From Vicinamibacterales bacterium (GTDB lineage: Bacteria; Acidobacteriota; Vicinamibacteria; Vicinamibacterales; UBA8438), in assembly GCA_965249175.1 (NCBI GenBank), contig OZ252227.1, positions 2,556,900-2,620,899 of the forward strand: a stretch of 64,000 nucleotides of DNA. The letters run 5' to 3'. The translations under genes were made by a program, and so were the position numbers. The notes beneath the pieces were generated by a model, which saw only the letters and a list, made by a program, of their open reading frames with translations, was not told the origin of the DNA and ran no database searches. Of this stretch, positions 47,969-55,748 are shown in pieces. The stretch's first letter is position 1; each line of letters begins with the position of its first letter.

Positions 47969-48037
47969 TGTCGATTATTCTAGAGCCTACGGGCCCACAT
48001 GCGCAGCATCAGTCTCGTAACCACTCGTTGCTCGACC

Positions 48038-48094
48038 ATGACGTTGACGCCGACGTCGACCCGTCCGACCCGGTCTCGGGCCGGTGCTGGATGA
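48038..48094 (+). CDS. Thr-rich leader peptide (18 aa), thrL-like
   Basis: atg acg ttg acg ccg acg tcg acc cgt ccg acc cgg tct cgg gcc ggt gct gga tga = MTLTPTSTRPTRSRAGAG*. There are five Thr codons in the first 11. The stop lies inside the antiterminator arm. No obvious SD. Confidence 0.55.
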   Translation: MTLTPTSTRPTRSRAGAG

Positions 48095-48123: not shown

Positions 48124-48161
48124 GGGCCATCATCCATCGCCGGATGATGGCCCTTTTCTTT
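48124..48161 (+). terminator. Intrinsic terminator of the hom-operon attenuator
   Basis: Perfect 12-bp stem gggccatcatcc / ggatgatggccc with the 6-nt loop atcgcc, followed by ttttcttt. It ends 8 nt before the annotated hom ATG. Confidence 0.8.
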
Positions 48162-48168
48162 AGGTGTC

Positions 48169-49455
48169 ATGGAGTCAGTGGAGTCAGTGCTCAAGATCGC
48201 GCTCGTGGGCTTTGGGACGGTGGGGCAGTCCGTCGCGCGCATTCTGTGCGCGGGCACGCATCCGCGGCTGCGGCTCACCCATATCGCGAACCGCAACGTC
48301 GAACGCAAGAAGGCCGACTGGGTGCCGGCGGACGTCATCTGGACGGACCAGGTCAGTCATGTGGTCGCGTCCGAGGCCGACGTGGTCATCGAGGTGATCG
48401 GCGGCGTCGACCCGGCAGCGGACTGGATTCAGCAGTTTCTCCGCGCCGGGAAATCAGTCGTGACGGCGAATAAGCAGGTCATTGCCCTGCATGGTGCCGA
48501 GCTCATGGCGCTGGCTCGGGAACAACGGTGCCATGTGCTCTTCGAAGCGGCTGTTGCGGGGGGGGTGCCCGTCGTGCGGGGCGTGCGCGAGGGCCTTGCC
48601 GGCGACCAGCTGTGCCGGGTGCATGGTGTCTTGAACGGCACCTGCAACTACATCTTGACCCGCATGGAGACGGCCCAGGTGTCGTTCGCCGAGGCTCTGA
48701 CCGAAGCGCAATCGCTCGGGTACGCCGAAGCTGATCCGACAGCGGACGTCGACGGCGCCGACGCGCAGGCCAAGCTCGCTATCCTGTCGATGGTGGGACT
48801 TCGTCGTCAGATCGAGGCCACGACGATTCCGCTCGCGTCGATCCGCCCAATTGAGCCGATTGACTTCGTGTATGCGCGCCGGCTGGAGTGCACGATCCGG
48901 CAGGTGGCGCGCGCGGAGCTCGTGAGCGGCGACCGCCGGGTGCTGGCGTCGGTGATGCCGGCACTCGTCCCGTTGGCCTCCACGCTGGCCCGTATCGAAG
49001 GGAACCAGAACGTCGTCGTCGTCGAAGGTGCTTTCGGTGGCGAAACGGCGTTCTCCGGTTACGGGGCCGGTGGCGACCCGACGGCCGTGGCGGTGGTCTC
49101 AGACCTCGAATCGATCGCGCGTGGTCATGAAGACGCGGCCGCGGACTGGCGGATCGACCGCGCGGAGCGTGTCGAGCGCGAGTTCATGGCGCCGCATTAC
49201 GCCCGATTCATCGTCGCCGATCGGCCCGGTATCATCGCCGCGCTGGCGGATGTCTTCTCGCGACATGGGGTCAACGTCGATGCAGTGCTGCAGGAACCGG
49301 GGTGGTCGAAGGCCGAGCTGCCGTTCGTCGTGACACTGGAGTCGTGCAGTTCGACGGCCGTCAATGCCGCACTGGTCGAGATCGAGGCGTTGGACTTTCA
49401 CGCGCAACGGCCCGTGTGCCTGCCGATTCTCGCGCGAGGACAGCGTCGGTCATGA
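48169..49455 (+). CDS. hom: Homoserine dehydrogenase (with C-terminal ACT domain)
   Basis: LKIALVGFGTVGQSV; ...NGTCNYILTRM. The start is ambiguous (ATG 48169, or GTG 48178/48187 after duplicated GGAG). Confidence 0.92.
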   Translation: MESVESVLKIALVGFGTVGQSVARILCAGTHPRLRLTHIANRNVERKKADWVPADVIWTDQVSHVVASEADVVIEVIGGVDPAADWIQQFLRAGKSVVTANKQVIALHGAELMALAREQRCHVLFEAAVAGGVPVVRGVREGLAGDQLCRVHGVLNGTCNYILTRMETAQVSFAEALTEAQSLGYAEADPTADVDGADAQAKLAILSMVGLRRQIEATTIPLASIRPIEPIDFVYARRLECTIRQVARAELVSGDRRVLASVMPALVPLASTLARIEGNQNVVVVEGAFGGETAFSGYGAGGDPTAVAVVSDLESIARGHEDAAADWRIDRAERVEREFMAPHYARFIVADRPGIIAALADVFSRHGVNVDAVLQEPGWSKAELPFVVTLESCSSTAVNAALVEIEALDFHAQRPVCLPILARGQRRS

Positions 49456-50711
49456 GCTTCGTCACCGGTCTCCAGTGTTCGTTGTGCCGGACCCCGTTTC
49501 CTCCCGAGGCGCTCTACGTCTGCGATCAGTGTCTCGGGCCGCTCGAGGTGACCTACGATCGCGACGCCATCCGCCGAGTGCTCACGCGAGAGGTCATCGC
49601 ATCTCGGCCGCCCAATTTGTGGCGGTATCGGGAGTTGCTTCCGATCGACGGCGACCCGCGCACCGGACTCCAGTCGGGGTTCACGCCGCTCGTGCGCGCG
49701 CATCGGCTGGCGGCTGAGCTCGGCATGCGTGAGCTGTGGATCAAGGACGATTCCGTGAATCACCCGACGCTGTCCTACAAGGATCGAGTGGTGCCCGTGG
49801 CGGCCACACGAGCGGTCGAGCTCGGGTTCACGGTGTTTGGCTGTGCGTCGACGGGGAATCTCGCGAACAGCGTTGCCGCGCATGCCGCGCGCCTCGGGCT
49901 GGCCTGTTACGTCTTCATTCCCGACACCCTCGAGCGGGGCAAGATCCTGGGATCCGCGATCGCCGGACCGCACGTCGTGGCGATCGACGGGACCTACGAC
50001 GACGTCAATCGGCTGTGTACGCAGGTGGGGGAACGATATGGCTGGGGGTTTGCCAACATCAACCTCCGAAGCTACTACGCCGAAGGCGCGAAGACCCTCG
50101 GATTCGAGATCGTCGAGCAGCTCGGCTGGCGGTTTCCACGCCACGTCGTCTCGCCGGTGGCCGGCGGAACGTTGTTGCCGCGGATCGGGAACGGATGTCG
50201 GGAGCTGCGGGACGCGGATCTGGTGGAAGGGGATCTGCCGCGGATTCACGCGGCTCAAGCGGCAGGGTGCGCGCCGGTGATTCGCGCCCTCGAGTCGGGA
50301 GCCGAGTATCCCGAACCGGTCAAACCGGACACCATTGCCAAGTCGATCGCGATCGGAAACCCGGCGGACGGGTTCCACGTGCTGCGCACCGTGCGCGACA
50401 CCGGGGGGTCGGGCGCGAGTGCCACCGATGACGAAATCATCGATGCGATCGGCTTGCTGGCGCGGACGGAGGGTATCTTCACGGAACCCGCCGGCGGCAC
50501 GACCCTCGCCGTGACCATTAAATTGGTCACGGAAGGCGTCATCGAGAAAGACGAATCAACGGTGATGTGCATCACCGGGAACGGATACAAGACCCCCGAG
50601 GTGGTGGCCGCGACAGTGCGGGAGCCGACACGGCTCGCCCGATCACTGCGCGACGTCGAGGACTTCGTTGCCGAGCAGGACGCGCGGCACCGGCGTGAGG
50701 GGCGGCAGTGA
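49452..50711 (+). CDS. thrC: Threonine synthase (with N-terminal Cys4 zinc-ribbon)
   Basis: The ATG overlaps the hom stop (ATGA). CSLC...CDQC, and the PLP-lysine region HPTLSYKDR. Confidence 0.9.
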   Translation: MSFVTGLQCSLCRTPFPPEALYVCDQCLGPLEVTYDRDAIRRVLTREVIASRPPNLWRYRELLPIDGDPRTGLQSGFTPLVRAHRLAAELGMRELWIKDDSVNHPTLSYKDRVVPVAATRAVELGFTVFGCASTGNLANSVAAHAARLGLACYVFIPDTLERGKILGSAIAGPHVVAIDGTYDDVNRLCTQVGERYGWGFANINLRSYYAEGAKTLGFEIVEQLGWRFPRHVVSPVAGGTLLPRIGNGCRELRDADLVEGDLPRIHAAQAAGCAPVIRALESGAEYPEPVKPDTIAKSIAIGNPADGFHVLRTVRDTGGSGASATDDEIIDAIGLLARTEGIFTEPAGGTTLAVTIKLVTEGVIEKDESTVMCITGNGYKTPEVVAATVREPTRLARSLRDVEDFVAEQDARHRREGRQ

Positions 50712-51973
50712 CCCATCCGGAGCTCGGCGTCATTGTCGAGGCGGAGGGGCACTTGATCGACTCGCAGTTGCTCAACGCCATCTTCGACAAGGTCATCGAG
50801 CGCCGCGCGACGTTCGAAGTGCTCGAGTTCGCGATCGGTCGGACGAACGACGAGTTCTCGCGGCTCACACTCCGAGTGACCGCCCCGGATCGCCCCCGCC
50901 TGGTCCAGTTGCTCGAAGAGCTGATGCCGCTTGGCTGCCACCCGGCGCCGGAGCGCGAGGTCGTGCTGAAGGCAGCGGACGTGGACGGATGCGTGCCGGA
51001 CGATTTCTACGCCACAACCAACCATCGAACCCACGTGCGTCATGGAGGGGCGTGGATCGAGGTCGGAGATCAGCGGATGGACGCCGTCATCGTCGTGACC
51101 CCGACCGGCGCAGCCTGCTGCAAGCTGCGAGACGTGCAGGCGGGCGACGCGGTCGTGTGCGGCGTCGATGGCATCCGCGTGGCGCCCGCGTTTCGCGAAC
51201 GCGATCGGCTCGGCTTTGCGTTCATGACCAACGACGTGTCGACCGAGCGACGTGTCGAAGTCACGGTCACCAAGATTCTGGCGATGATGCGGGAGGTGAA
51301 GGCGGCCGGCGGCCGCATCGCGTTCGTGGCCGGCCCGGTCGTCGTTCACAGCGGAGGTGGCGCTTACTTCACCGAGCTCATCCAGCACGGGTTCGTAGAT
51401 GTGCTGCTGGCGGGGAACGCCCTTGCCGTACACGACGTCGAGCACGCGATGTTCGGGACGTCGCTGGGCATCGACCTCGACGCCGGTGTCGCCGTCGAGG
51501 GGGGGCATAAGAACCACATGCGGGCGATCAACGCGATCAACCGTGCCGGCGGTCTGCGCCCTGCGGTCGCGACCGGCGTCCTACGGTCGGGGATCATGCA
51601 CGAGGCGATCACGCGCAAGGTCGACTACGTGCTCGCCGGGAGCATTCGTGACGACGGGCCGTTACTGGACACGATCATGGACCTTGTCGACGCTCAGGAC
51701 AGATACGCGGCGGCGCTCCGCGACGTCACCATGGTCGTCATGCTGTCGACGATGCTCCATAGCATCGGCGTCGGCAACATGCTGCCGTCCTGGGTCCGGG
51801 TCGTGTGCGTGGACATCAACCCCGCGGTCGTGACGAAACTGTCCGATCGGGGTTCGTCTCAAACAGTTGGCGTCGTGACCGACGTCGGTCTGTTCCTACA
51901 CCAGCTGAGCGTGCAGCTGCGTGATCCGGCCCGGGTCGCGGCCCCCGCGACACTCGAGGGGACACACGGATGA
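50708..51973 (+). CDS. TIGR00300 / LOR-SDH conserved-domain family protein (archaeal-type ornithine cyclodeaminase family); the function in this context is unknown
   Basis: 421 aa. The N-terminus GHLIDSQLLNAIFDKVIE... and central FVAGPVVVHSGGG...LLAGNALAVHD...HKNHMRAIN match my memory of this family. It has 4-nt overlaps with both thrC and lysC. Confidence 0.6.
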   Translation: MTHPELGVIVEAEGHLIDSQLLNAIFDKVIERRATFEVLEFAIGRTNDEFSRLTLRVTAPDRPRLVQLLEELMPLGCHPAPEREVVLKAADVDGCVPDDFYATTNHRTHVRHGGAWIEVGDQRMDAVIVVTPTGAACCKLRDVQAGDAVVCGVDGIRVAPAFRERDRLGFAFMTNDVSTERRVEVTVTKILAMMREVKAAGGRIAFVAGPVVVHSGGGAYFTELIQHGFVDVLLAGNALAVHDVEHAMFGTSLGIDLDAGVAVEGGHKNHMRAINAINRAGGLRPAVATGVLRSGIMHEAITRKVDYVLAGSIRDDGPLLDTIMDLVDAQDRYAAALRDVTMVVMLSTMLHSIGVGNMLPSWVRVVCVDINPAVVTKLSDRGSSQTVGVVTDVGLFLHQLSVQLRDPARVAAPATLEGTHG

Positions 51974-53232
51974 GTGCGGCCGTGGGCGAACCGATTGTCG
52001 TGCAGAAGTACGGTGGCACGTCCGTCGCGACTGCGGATCGGATTTGCGCGATTGCAGACCGCATCGCGCGATGCGTGCCGGACCATCCACGTCTCGTGGT
52101 CGTGCTGTCCGCGATGGGGAAGACCACCGATGGCCTCGTGGCCCTCGCTCACGAGGTGGCGCGCCAGCCACAGGGACGGGAAATGGACCTCCTGCTGTCA
52201 ACGGGTGAACAGGTGTCCGTGTCGTTGCTCGGGTTGGCCCTTCAGGACAAGGGGATGGCTGCGGTCTCGTTGACCGCTCCACAGTGCGGGATCCGGACGG
52301 ACAGCGCCTTCAGTATCGCGCGGATCGAGTCCATCGACACGCGGCGTATTCTGGGCGAGCTCGACGAGGGTCGCGTCGTGATCATCGCCGGGTTCCAGGG
52401 TGTGACCCACGATCACGAGGTGACGACGCTCGGGCGCGGTGGGAGCGACATCACGGCCGCCGCGGTGGCGGCGGCGCTCGACGCGCGCGTGTGCGAGATC
52501 TGTACGGATGTCGACGGCGTGATGTCCGCCGACCCGAGCACAGTCCCGCATGCCACGCGGTGGCGCGCCATCAGCTACGAAGAGGCCGTGGAGATGGCCT
52601 CGAGCGGCGCGAAGGTGCTGCACCCACGTGCGGCCGAGGTCTGCATGGCGTACGGCATTCCCATTCATGTGCGCTCGAGCTTCCACATGGATGAGGGGAC
52701 GTGGATTCGCGGAGGCGACGACATGGTGATGGAACAAGCGGCCGTGGTTGGTGTGAGCAGCGACAAGCAGATCGCCAAGGTCACCCTGCTGGAGGTGCCG
52801 GACAGACCCGGGATGGCCGCCCGGGTATTTCAGGACCTCGCGGCTGGCGGGATCAGCGTGCGCCTCATCATCCAGAGCGCAAGCTCCGAAGGTCGAGGGC
52901 GAATCACGTTCGTGCTCGATGCCGAGTACGCCGATGGCGCGGCCACCCTGATCGACCACTGGAAGGCCGAAGGCGTCGCGAGTGCGGGGACCGTCGAGCG
53001 CGACGTGGCGAAGATCTCGATTGTCGGTTCGCGCCTCGCGTCGACACCTGGGCTGGCCGCGCGGATGTTCGCCGTCCTGGCGCGTGAGGGCATCAATATC
53101 GACTGCATCAGCTCGTCCGAAATGAAGGTCGCGTGTGTCATCGCCTCGGCCCAGGTCGACCAGGCCGTGCGCGCTGTCCACGACGAATTCTTTCCGCAGG
53201 CGGACCCGGTGGGGTCCGGGTCGACGGGGTAG
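51970..53232 (+). CDS. lysC: Aspartate kinase (two C-terminal ACT domains)
   Basis: VVQKYGGTSVA...VVVLSAMGKTTD...GRGGSDITAAA. Confidence 0.93.
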   Translation: MSAAVGEPIVVQKYGGTSVATADRICAIADRIARCVPDHPRLVVVLSAMGKTTDGLVALAHEVARQPQGREMDLLLSTGEQVSVSLLGLALQDKGMAAVSLTAPQCGIRTDSAFSIARIESIDTRRILGELDEGRVVIIAGFQGVTHDHEVTTLGRGGSDITAAAVAAALDARVCEICTDVDGVMSADPSTVPHATRWRAISYEEAVEMASSGAKVLHPRAAEVCMAYGIPIHVRSSFHMDEGTWIRGGDDMVMEQAAVVGVSSDKQIAKVTLLEVPDRPGMAARVFQDLAAGGISVRLIIQSASSEGRGRITFVLDAEYADGAATLIDHWKAEGVASAGTVERDVAKISIVGSRLASTPGLAARMFAVLAREGINIDCISSSEMKVACVIASAQVDQAVRAVHDEFFPQADPVGSGSTG

Positions 53233-53238
53233 GGAGCA

Positions 53239-54285
53239 ATGGACGGTCGACTCGACGTCGGGATCCTCGGCGCGACCGGTACGATCGGTCAGGAGTTCAT
53301 CGCCGAGCTCGCGGCGCATCCCTGGTTCAACGTGGCGTGGCTGGCTGCCAGTGAGCGATCCGCGGGTCGGCGTTACGGCGACGCGACCGAGTGGCGGCTC
53401 CCGTCGGTGTTGCCCGCGTCGGTGGCCGACATGGTCGTGCACCCGTGCGAGCCGGCCGGCGCACCGAGCCTGGTGTTCTCGGGACTCGATGCGTCGGTGG
53501 CTGGCGATGTCGAGACCGCCTTCGCGTCGGCCGGTCACACGGTGGTGAGCAACGCGCGCAACCATCGCATGGCGGGGGACGTGCCGCTCCTGGTGCCCGA
53601 GATCAACCCCGACCACCTGCAGTTGCTCGCACGGCAGCGACGCGTTCGGGGATGGTCGGGTCGGATCGTCACGAACGCCAATTGCTCGACGATTGTGCTC
53701 ACGATGGCGCTGGCGCCGCTGTGTCGGTTCGGCTTGCGGTCGGCCACGGTGTCGACGCTGCAGGCGGTCTCGGGCGCCGGGTATCCGGGCGAGGCCTCGC
53801 TGGATATTCTGGGCAACGTCATCCCGTTCATTGCGGGCGAAGAAGAGAAGATGGAGTCCGAGACCCAGAAGATCCTCGGGTGTTTCGAGGACGATGCCGT
53901 GACGCCGCACGCGGTCACGATCAGCGCGCAGACCACGCGAGTGCCGGTGGTCCATGGTCACACCGAGCTGGTGTCGGTCGCGCTGGAGACCCAGCCGTCG
54001 ATCGACGACGTGAGGGAGGCGTTCCGCGGTTTCGCCGGGCGTCCGCAGGCCGAGCGCCTCCCGAGCGCTCCGCCGCACCCGGTGCTCTATCTCGCGGAGC
54101 CCGCACGGCCGCAGCCGCGGCTCGATGTCGATCGGGACGGGGGGATGACCGTGTCTGTCGGGCGCCTGCGTCCGTGTCCGGTGCTCGACTATAAATTCGT
54201 CGTGCTCGGACACAACACCGTGCGCGGCGCCGCCGGTGCGGCTTTGCTGAACGCCGAGCTGATGCGGGTGGATGGGCTCATGTAG
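53239..54285 (+). CDS. asd: Aspartate-semialdehyde dehydrogenase
   Basis: GILGATGTIGQEF...NCSTIVL (catalytic Cys)...GHNTVRGAAG. Confidence 0.92.
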   Translation: MDGRLDVGILGATGTIGQEFIAELAAHPWFNVAWLAASERSAGRRYGDATEWRLPSVLPASVADMVVHPCEPAGAPSLVFSGLDASVAGDVETAFASAGHTVVSNARNHRMAGDVPLLVPEINPDHLQLLARQRRVRGWSGRIVTNANCSTIVLTMALAPLCRFGLRSATVSTLQAVSGAGYPGEASLDILGNVIPFIAGEEEKMESETQKILGCFEDDAVTPHAVTISAQTTRVPVVHGHTELVSVALETQPSIDDVREAFRGFAGRPQAERLPSAPPHPVLYLAEPARPQPRLDVDRDGGMTVSVGRLRPCPVLDYKFVVLGHNTVRGAAGAALLNAELMRVDGLM

Positions 54286-54335: not shown

Positions 54336-55748
54336 TTAGGGTCGCGCTGCGGGGCCGCCAGGTGCGGCCTGCCGCCCATCGAACACGATGCGGCCGTCAA
54401 CCACGGTCAGCAGCACTCGTGCGTCTCGAATGTCGGGCGAGGGTGCAGACAGCAGATTCGTGTCGAGCATCACGAAGTCGGCCAGCTGCCCAACCACGAG
54501 GCGGCCCTTCGTAGCTTCCTCGAATGAGGCGTACGCGCCGGTCAGCGTGTACGCATCGATCGCCTGGGCAATCGTCACCCGTTCGGTCGGGATCCATCCG
54601 CCGCTCCCGCGCCCGTCGAGCGGCCGGCGCGTGACAGCGGCGTAGAGCCCGTCCATGGGGTTGACCGGTGAGTAGAACCAATCGGTCCCGAAGGTGACGC
54701 GTGCGCCGCTGTCGAGCAGAGACCGGATGGGCAGGGCGGTCGTGTCGCGATGCTGCCCGACCAGCGCGTCGATCAGCGACGCGTCGTACAGCAATCGTGC
54801 GGGTTGCATGCTGGCGACGACGCCCAGACGGCCGAGGCGGTCGACGTCCGCCGTGCGGAGATGCTGGGCGTGCTCGATTCGAAACCGCCGGTCTCGCCGA
54901 CCGTTCTCTCGAATCACGCGGTCATACGTGTTCAAGACGAGGTGGGTGGCGCGGGCGCCGATGGCGTGCATAGCCACCTGGAGTCCGGCCCGGTCGGCGG
55001 CGGCAGTCCAGGCGTAGAGCTGGTCCTCGTCGTAGAGCAGCATGCCGCGGTCGCCCACCGAACCGGGATAGGCCTCGTCCAGCGCCGCGGTTCGCGTATC
55101 CAGCGTGCCATCGACCAATCCCTTGACGGCGCCGACGCGGAGCCAGGCGTTGCCGCGGCCGTCCGGGCCGCCGAAGGTGCCGCTGGCGATCTCGTCCCGC
55201 AGGCGGGGCCACGTCGCGAGCGGCACCGCGGCGTAGATGCGTGCGGTGAGGCTGTGTCTGGCCGCGGCAGTCTGGAAGGCCGCCACGTCCGACCAGCCTC
55301 CCATGTGGTGGACGGACGTGACGCCTCGGGCCGTCAGGTGGTCGAGTGCGGCGTCCAGTGCCGCTGCATCGCGATCCGCCGAACGCATCGACCGGGCGAC
55401 GGGCGTCACGGCCGGGTCGCGATCTCCCTCCTCGAGGAGTTGGTAACCGGCGTCGATGAGGTGGGCGTGCGAGTCGATGAAGCCAGGTAGGACCATGGCC
55501 CCGCCGGCATCGATCAGACCGTCATCGACGGCCAGCGCGGCTACAGCGACGCTGCTTCCGACTGCCGCGATGCGACCATCGGACACTCCAACCGCCTCGA
55601 CCACGGGATGCGCGGGGTCGCCGGTCCAGACCCTCGCATTCACGACAGCGAGGGTCACCGCTGGGATGGGCGATGGTGCCTCGACTCCGCAGGCGGCGCA
55701 GGTGAGAGCGCAGAGCGCGGTGGTCCACGTTGTGCGCCGACGGGGCAT
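54336..55748 (-). CDS. Amidohydrolase-family metallo-hydrolase (Amidohydro_3-like) lipoprotein
   Basis: The start at MPRRRTTW... carries the lipobox LTCAAC. Metal motif PGFIDSHAHL. The upstream part of the track ORF was rejected. Confidence 0.75.
   Translation of the reverse strand: MPRRRTTWTTALCALTCAACGVEAPSPIPAVTLAVVNARVWTGDPAHPVVEAVGVSDGRIAAVGSSVAVAALAVDDGLIDAGGAMVLPGFIDSHAHLIDAGYQLLEEGDRDPAVTPVARSMRSADRDAAALDAALDHLTARGVTSVHHMGGWSDVAAFQTAAARHSLTARIYAAVPLATWPRLRDEIASGTFGGPDGRGNAWLRVGAVKGLVDGTLDTRTAALDEAYPGSVGDRGMLLYDEDQLYAWTAAADRAGLQVAMHAIGARATHLVLNTYDRVIRENGRRDRRFRIEHAQHLRTADVDRLGRLGVVASMQPARLLYDASLIDALVGQHRDTTALPIRSLLDSGARVTFGTDWFYSPVNPMDGLYAAVTRRPLDGRGSGGWIPTERVTIAQAIDAYTLTGAYASFEEATKGRLVVGQLADFVMLDTNLLSAPSPDIRDARVLLTVVDGRIVFDGRQAAPGGPAARP

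Follow-up and report, generated by a model that had tools for sequence, protein, structure and literature searches.

What is a gene of an ornithine cyclodeaminase family doing between the genes for threonine synthase and aspartate kinase, and does its product take part in the aspartate pathway? The question arises from a gene, here called X, in the window (the whole 64,000-nucleotide stretch of a Vicinamibacterales contig that was analysed), where it stands in the gene order hom-thrC-X-lysC-asd. The original prediction, made from the sequence of this stretch, saw X as occupying the place where thrB, encoding homoserine kinase, would be expected, and proposed for its product either a catalytic role in the Asp/Thr/Lys pathway or a moonlighting regulatory one.

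The operon and its gene junctions

The five genes of the operon were assigned as follows.

48169..49455, forward strand: hom, homoserine dehydrogenase with a C-terminal ACT domain (PF00742, PF03447, PF01842; NF004976, 396 bits)
49452..50711, forward strand: thrC, threonine synthase (TIGR00260, 251.8 bits against a cut-off of 167)
50708..51973, forward strand: X, a 421-aa protein with a GTG start, of the TIGR00300 family of ornithine cyclodeaminases (archaeal, nickel-pincer type)
51970..53232, forward strand: lysC, monofunctional aspartate kinase with two ACT domains (NF005155, 481.7 bits; PF00696 and ACT)
53239..54285, forward strand: asd, aspartate-semialdehyde dehydrogenase of the archaeal/eukaryal type (TIGR00978, 430.5 bits; NF006416, 467.6 bits)

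The claim that X is coupled to its neighbours on both sides is confirmed by the junctions: at GTGA (50708-50711) the start of X shares its TGA with the thrC stop, and at ATGA (51970-51973) the stop of X shares its ATG with the lysC start. A Shine-Dalgarno-like GAGGGG lies 5' of both the X and the lysC starts. The longest thrC ORF opens at 49302, and the TIGR00260 match begins at residue 51 of this long ORF. In the same frame, position 49452 offers an ATG that overlaps the stop of hom (ATGA, 49452-49455). The thrC start is probably this ATG, with hom and thrC overlapping through ATGA, and hom, thrC, X and lysC would then be linked in a chain by 4-nt overlaps. The spacing between lysC and asd is 6 nt.

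This coupling is common to relatives and is not a peculiarity of one genome. Across 34 related loci of the same gene order, the overlap between X and lysC is 4 nt in 22, and the gap from thrC to X is at most 2 nt in 20 of the 32 that could be scored. It had also been claimed that the operon contains no homoserine kinase, and searches with Pfam and NCBIfam profiles agree, finding only hom, thrC, X, lysC and asd and no thrB within it. A scan of the 64-kb window against Rfam gave zero matches.

Family identity of X

The assignment of X to its family, proposed from the sequence, is upheld by both the TIGR00300 and the PF04455 profiles. Against a TIGR00300 cut-off of 410.8 bits X reaches 517.4, with residues 10-405 aligned to positions 6-405 of the 407 in the model, and its architecture is complete: PF04455 at residues 10-106, PF21571 (ArgZ-like_C first region) at 108-187 and PF21570 (Rossmann-fold) at 189-400, all above gathering scores. 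The gene is present in a single copy in its genome. No kinase domain, whether GHMP or phosphoglycerate-mutase-like, was found in X by Pfam or NCBIfam, and X has no match to PF02423, the family of classical ornithine cyclodeaminase (OCD) and mu-crystallin.

Across the C-terminal cyclodeaminase module X resembles the cyanobacterial proteins AgrE (Anabaena Alr4995; 6lrf, 6lrg, 6lrh) and ArgZ (Synechocystis Sll1336; 6juy), with 57% identity in a 396-residue alignment to the cyclodeaminase domains of 6lrf, 6lrh and 6juy; the part of AgrE aligned with X is residues 287-691. AgrE and ArgZ are bifunctional arginine dihydrolase/ornithine cyclodeaminases, whereas X has no N-terminal dihydrolase domain fused to it, scoring 469.9 bits against NF052231 (cut-off 1025) and matching model positions 287-692 only. 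The conversion of ornithine to proline by AgrE has been described (PMC8262935), and a preprint (bioRxiv 10.1101/2023.08.31.555715, citing Burnat et al. 2019) identifies M. maripaludis MMP1218 as a TIGR00300-family enzyme. A full-text literature search for TIGR00300 by name found no paper.

X is accordingly predicted to convert L-ornithine to L-proline and ammonia. The same net reaction is that of classical OCD (PF02423, e.g. the Pseudomonas putida enzyme), a protein unrelated to X in fold and family.

Cofactor genes

The original prediction described the activity of the family as NAD-dependent, a description that needs revision. NCBIfam now names TIGR00300 the nickel-pincer-nucleotide-dependent ornithine cyclodeaminase, and PMC13524815 reports, after Desguin (2025, Int J Biol Macromol 330:147799), that the TIGR00300-type cyclodeaminase works with a nickel-pincer adenine dinucleotide, bound non-covalently, rather than with plain NAD. 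X would likewise use a tightly bound cofactor of the nickel-pincer nucleotide type, which the host LarB, LarC and LarE could supply: its genome encodes LarB (281.6 bits, cut-off 175), LarC (197.4 bits, cut-off 90) and a LarE-type protein (TIGR00268, 305.6 bits, cut-off 150), from genes that are dispersed and in no case adjacent to X. Because a LarA homologue is also encoded, X is not the sole possible user of such a cofactor.

We considered the co-occurrence of LarC and TIGR00300 as a test of cofactor dependence and found it uninformative. Of 81 genomes of the order, 70 encode LarC, with or without TIGR00300, and LarC has no match in four TIGR00300-positive genomes of one family (f16); being both widespread and missing from these four, it does not demonstrate dependence by its co-occurrence.

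Homoserine kinase and the thrB slot

In thr operons thrB commonly adjoins thrC, and a frequent place near thrC is the only likeness between X and ThrB, a GHMP kinase (TIGR00191). The original prediction suggested searching the genome for thrB and held that a canonical copy elsewhere, together with purely ornithine cyclodeaminase activity of X, would count against it. The genome, a single contig of 6.64 Mb that is 98.3% complete, does carry a canonical thrB outside the operon, at 6167556-6168473 (NF002288, 341.8 bits; TIGR00191, 230.9 bits against a cut-off of 168).

Two further genomes of the order locate the slot that thrB would occupy. The operon reads hom-thrB-thrC-X-lysC-asd in genome G011 of family f11 (thrB, 209 bits) and hom-thrB-thrC-lysC, with no X, in genome G055 of family f16 (thrB, 206 bits). 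In these two gene orders the slot for thrB falls between hom and thrC, and that of X, an inserted gene, one step further on, between thrC and lysC. X therefore does not stand where thrB would be expected, and the two genes coexist in G011. We rejected X as a substitute for thrB, given the canonical thrB in the same genome and the presence of thrB and X side by side in the G011 operon.

Distribution of the linkage

The genome loci closest to that of X belong to Vicinamibacterales (Acidobacteriota). We surveyed the neighbourhoods of 101 X loci. Either thrC or lysC, or both, is adjacent in 36, almost all of which have the full hom-thrC-X-lysC-asd order; X is unlinked in 64, and in the one other locus hom is the only adjacent linked gene. 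Among the GTDB families of Vicinamibacterales, the five-gene order occurs in the family of the window (f1) and in f11 and f12. With 34 related loci sharing it, the linkage is not unique to this genome; uniqueness had been named as an outcome that would tell against the original prediction. In three of four genomes of family f5, hom and X form a pair on their own, with unrelated genes on either side. This recurring association with hom is not something that pure hitch-hiking predicts.

Elsewhere the gene lies in other surroundings. Families f2, f4, f6, f9, f10, f13, f16 and f17 carry X at other positions, Blastocatellia also have it outside this operon, and further unlinked copies come from loci labelled Bacteroidota, Planctomycetota, Pseudomonadota, Bacillota and Obscuribacterales. 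Among the neighbours scanned at unlinked X are hydrolases, an M48 peptidase and two-component systems, and unlinked orthologues with 62-71% identity are found in unrelated contexts. With 64 of the 101 loci unlinked and among unrelated genes, we rejected a phylum-wide linkage; the association with aspartate-pathway genes that the original prediction wished to see surveyed across the phylum is confined to three Vicinamibacterales families, with hom-X alone in f5.

Conserved residues and phylogeny

We compared X with 29 diverse full-length representatives of the family (32-56% identity), among which 36 alignment columns are nearly invariant, taking invariant residues as a proxy for catalytic and cofactor sites. 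X keeps 34 of the 36 columns, including all of the polar invariant residues (D18, S51, Y101, T108, N237, D243, R314, D315, D325, D369, R381 and D392). Its two departures, A191L and P320L, are both hydrophobic. At position 191 the alanine gives way to Val, Leu or Ile only in family f1, and not in the linked copies of f11 and f12; no column is both fixed in the linked clade and rare elsewhere.

A maximum-likelihood tree groups the linked copies into a single 35-member clade (SH-aLRT 85) whose stem is short, at 0.029 substitutions per site. The f11 linked copy sits in a polytomy that the tree leaves unresolved, and one or two linkage events are therefore enough to account for the distribution. 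A search for a signal of neofunctionalisation in the linked clade turned up neither clade-specific residues nor a long stem, the change at A191 being tied to family f1 and not to linkage. Judged by these residues and this tree, X shows no sign of a changed function.

The leader upstream of hom

Upstream of hom we recognized two putative regulatory features.

47999..48094, forward strand: leader peptide ORF preceding hom, with Thr at 8 of its 31 codons (read from sequence)
48124..48163, forward strand: strong terminator-like hairpin (48124-48153) and T tract (attenuator terminator) just before hom, with a 12-bp stem containing 8 GC pairs, then TTTTCTTT

Leaders 5' of hom in the f1 and f12 loci contain 21% Thr, against 2.8% in other reading frames, an excess that is partly a selection artefact of picking the ORFs by their Thr count. 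Met reaches 10% in these leaders and 0.4% in other frames, and Pro codons, examined as a possible regulatory link, show no excess (11% against 11%). Since the leaders are rich in Thr and Met and not enriched in Pro, control of X would be tuned to homoserine-derived amino acids. Such regulation, as read from the leaders, does not appear to fit a proline gene. X would thus share its transcript, and be coupled in translation, with genes of the aspartate family behind a leader that senses Thr and Met, while acting outside their pathway.

Proline routes in the genome and in the order

Searches of the genome for other routes to proline found no match for proB (glutamate 5-kinase) or for the classical cyclodeaminase PF02423. 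The best match for proA (gamma-glutamyl-phosphate reductase) is a generic aldehyde dehydrogenase at 62 bits against a cut-off of 317, and a true ornithine aminotransferase was not found, the best match scoring 265 bits against a cut-off of 378. With no ProB, no ProA and no classical cyclodeaminase encoded, X is most likely the main biosynthetic source of proline in this organism. It need not be the only one, because proC and class-III aminotransferases are present and ornithine could pass in parallel through P5C to proline, by way of a promiscuous aminotransferase and ProC.

To place this genome among its relatives we used a census of 81 genomes of the order, each at least 90% complete. Of these, 49 carry TIGR00300 (47 over the cut-off and 2 fragments). 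proB is present in 6, all of family f7 and without TIGR00300, and the two are found together in 0 of the 81, an exclusivity that represents few independent events, as proB is limited to one family and the census genomes are related. Neither TIGR00300 nor proB is present in 26, of which 23 have a homologue of PF02423, a functionally mixed family, a point that limits how this figure can be read; all three are absent from 3 of the 81. The pattern fits three alternative routes to proline, X serving the genome studied here. A variant family, NF052526, was considered as the proline route of genomes without TIGR00300 and was rejected, as within the order it matches only the TIGR00300 genes themselves.

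Interpretation and alternatives

We consider it likely that X is a functional ornithine cyclodeaminase, probably the main route to proline, which owes its place to gene order and has no part in the aspartate pathway. Its position between thrC and lysC would go back to a single change of gene order, or to a few at most, in an ancestor of some Vicinamibacterales families. X is like other TIGR00300 cyclodeaminases of archaea and bacteria in its full-length match, its three-domain layout, its stand-alone length of about 410-420 aa and the Lar genes of its host. It differs from them in belonging to a soil acidobacterium and in lying in an aspartate-family operon under a Thr/Met leader, and it is not near arginine, proline or lar genes. 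The Asp/Thr/Lys-pathway role first proposed for it is not supported, given the thrB elsewhere in the genome, the gene order of G011, the restricted linkage and the lack of a functional shift.

A related idea keeps the fold and chemistry of the family but gives X an aspartate-family substrate (lysine, yielding pipecolate, or 2,4-diaminobutyrate or diaminopimelate), on account of which the gene would have been kept in the operon. The tight coupling to thrC and lysC, kept in most of the 34 loci, speaks in its favour, as do the renewed association with hom as a two-gene unit in a fourth family, a leader that does not sense proline and the substitution in f1 of an otherwise invariant alanine. We nonetheless judge it unlikely: every polar invariant residue is kept, no substitution is specific to the linked clade, the change at Ala191 is missing from the linked copies of f11 and f12, the stem branch is not accelerated, and close unlinked orthologues occur in unrelated contexts. 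Such a substrate would, moreover, leave the genome with no recognisable proline route save ProC fed by a side activity. Less probable still is a catabolic enzyme of the cyanobacterial kind, carrying arginine and ornithine nitrogen through proline to glutamate and not supplying proline for protein synthesis. AgrE and ArgZ, the best characterised bacterial relatives, are catabolic (PMC8262935), and the presence of proC suggests that proline has another source; X, however, has no fused arginine dihydrolase domain, its neighbours are thrC and lysC in a biosynthetic operon behind what would be an amino-acid-starvation attenuator, and proB and proA are absent, so that its role, in contrast to theirs, is probably biosynthetic.

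We regard as very improbable a moonlighting role in which X would be a partner of LysC or Hom, in regulation or in structure, for instance through its N-terminal PF04455 domain, with stoichiometric co-translation as the trait under selection. Only two things favour it: the overlap of 4 nt with lysC is conserved, and adjacency of hom and X recurs. Start/stop overlaps, however, occur at all gene pairs of the operon but lysC-asd, and most orthologues, in the order and beyond, lie beside neither lysC nor hom. Together, the Thr/Met leader and the hom-X pair of f5 leave a small probability for an aspartate-family-linked substrate or partner. In that event a cyclodeaminase would have been recruited to the homoserine/aspartate branch, to act on an aspartate-derived diamino acid (as in the conversion of lysine to pipecolate) or in concert with Hom or LysC. 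We think this unlikely; if true, it would explain both the coupling behind a Thr/Met leader and the separate hom-X pair.

The reading that we prefer, X as an ornithine cyclodeaminase that serves proline synthesis, corrects a tempting mis-annotation: the gene belongs to a recently characterised nickel-cofactor family, and encodes neither a non-orthologous homoserine kinase nor an unknown enzyme of the aspartate pathway. It also suggests that many Vicinamibacterales, abundant soil Acidobacteriota, make proline from ornithine, without ProB and ProA. Such a route would bear on metabolic models and on the gap-filling of genomes in this mostly uncultured order.

Leader peptide upstream of hom

The region ahead of the hom-thrC-X-lysC-asd operon, in which X is the TIGR00300-family ornithine cyclodeaminase gene, contains a short reading frame whose composition we compared with that of related loci, and a second small ORF lies at the other end of the operon:

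47999-48094 of the window, leader peptide ORF, upstream of hom
54750-55490 of the window, 246-aa ORF, downstream of asd

For the leader comparison we examined the regions upstream of hom in the surveyed loci L011-L017, L028, L039, L043, L048-L050, L092-L094, L106 and L107. In the loci from GTDB families f1 and f12, Met makes up 10% of hom-leader residues, compared with 0.4% in other frames, and Thr is likewise abundant. Because the hom leaders are Met-rich as well as Thr-rich, their composition suggests an attenuator ahead of hom that would respond to both homoserine-derived amino acids, Thr and Met. No similar leader was seen ahead of hom among the checked loci of families f2, f4, f5, f11 and f16.

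Gene content around the operon and its relatives

The 246-aa ORF has no Pfam or NCBIfam match. It is kept downstream of asd, at 37-39% identity, in the related linked loci L028, L068 and L094 (L028 and L094 are one genomic locus), and at 37-39% identity in an unlinked genome of family f4 (G020, L112), again downstream of asd. Elsewhere in the order, two genomes have the gene order thrB-thrC-thrC2, with 29-31% identity for thrC2 by tblastn and 33% in another comparison:

L113:4667-5806 and L116:4775-5992, thrC2, a divergent thrC-like PLP enzyme gene directly after thrC, in G068 (family f17) and G048 (family f6)

Within X itself, residue 191 (window 51278-51280), in the helix immediately ahead of the AGPVVVHSGGG Rossmann strand, is Leu; of 94 other family members compared, 93 have Ala at this position, and it is Val, Leu or Ile across all of family f1.

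Short tandem repeats lie on both sides of the isolated hom-X pair of the f5 genome G034 (L099:5940-6000 and L099:8500-8720), with units resembling GGGCAAAGGGCAGAG and CGACTAGCGACTAA on the upstream side and an 8-nt unit, CTCAAATC, downstream.

Proline-route genes and LarC in other genomes

In G050, which has no TIGR00300 gene, proB is found only as four neighboring pieces in differing frames (G050:C1:5332257-5333211; 134, 71, 55 and 26 bits), and it is probably a decaying gene. No homologue of proB, TIGR00300 or PF02423 was found in G005, G072 (f6) and G015 (f15), rated 96-99% complete.

Four genomes of family f16 (G016, G030, G067 and G079), one of them closed and rated 100% complete, yielded no match at E<=1e-20 to LarC, one of the nickel-pincer cofactor synthesis proteins; each carries a TIGR00300 gene over the cut-off. 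LarC is present in two further f16 genomes in a more divergent form (170-173 bits). In the genomes without a LarC match at this threshold, the TIGR00300 enzymes may depend on a different cofactor, or nickel may be inserted by a different protein.
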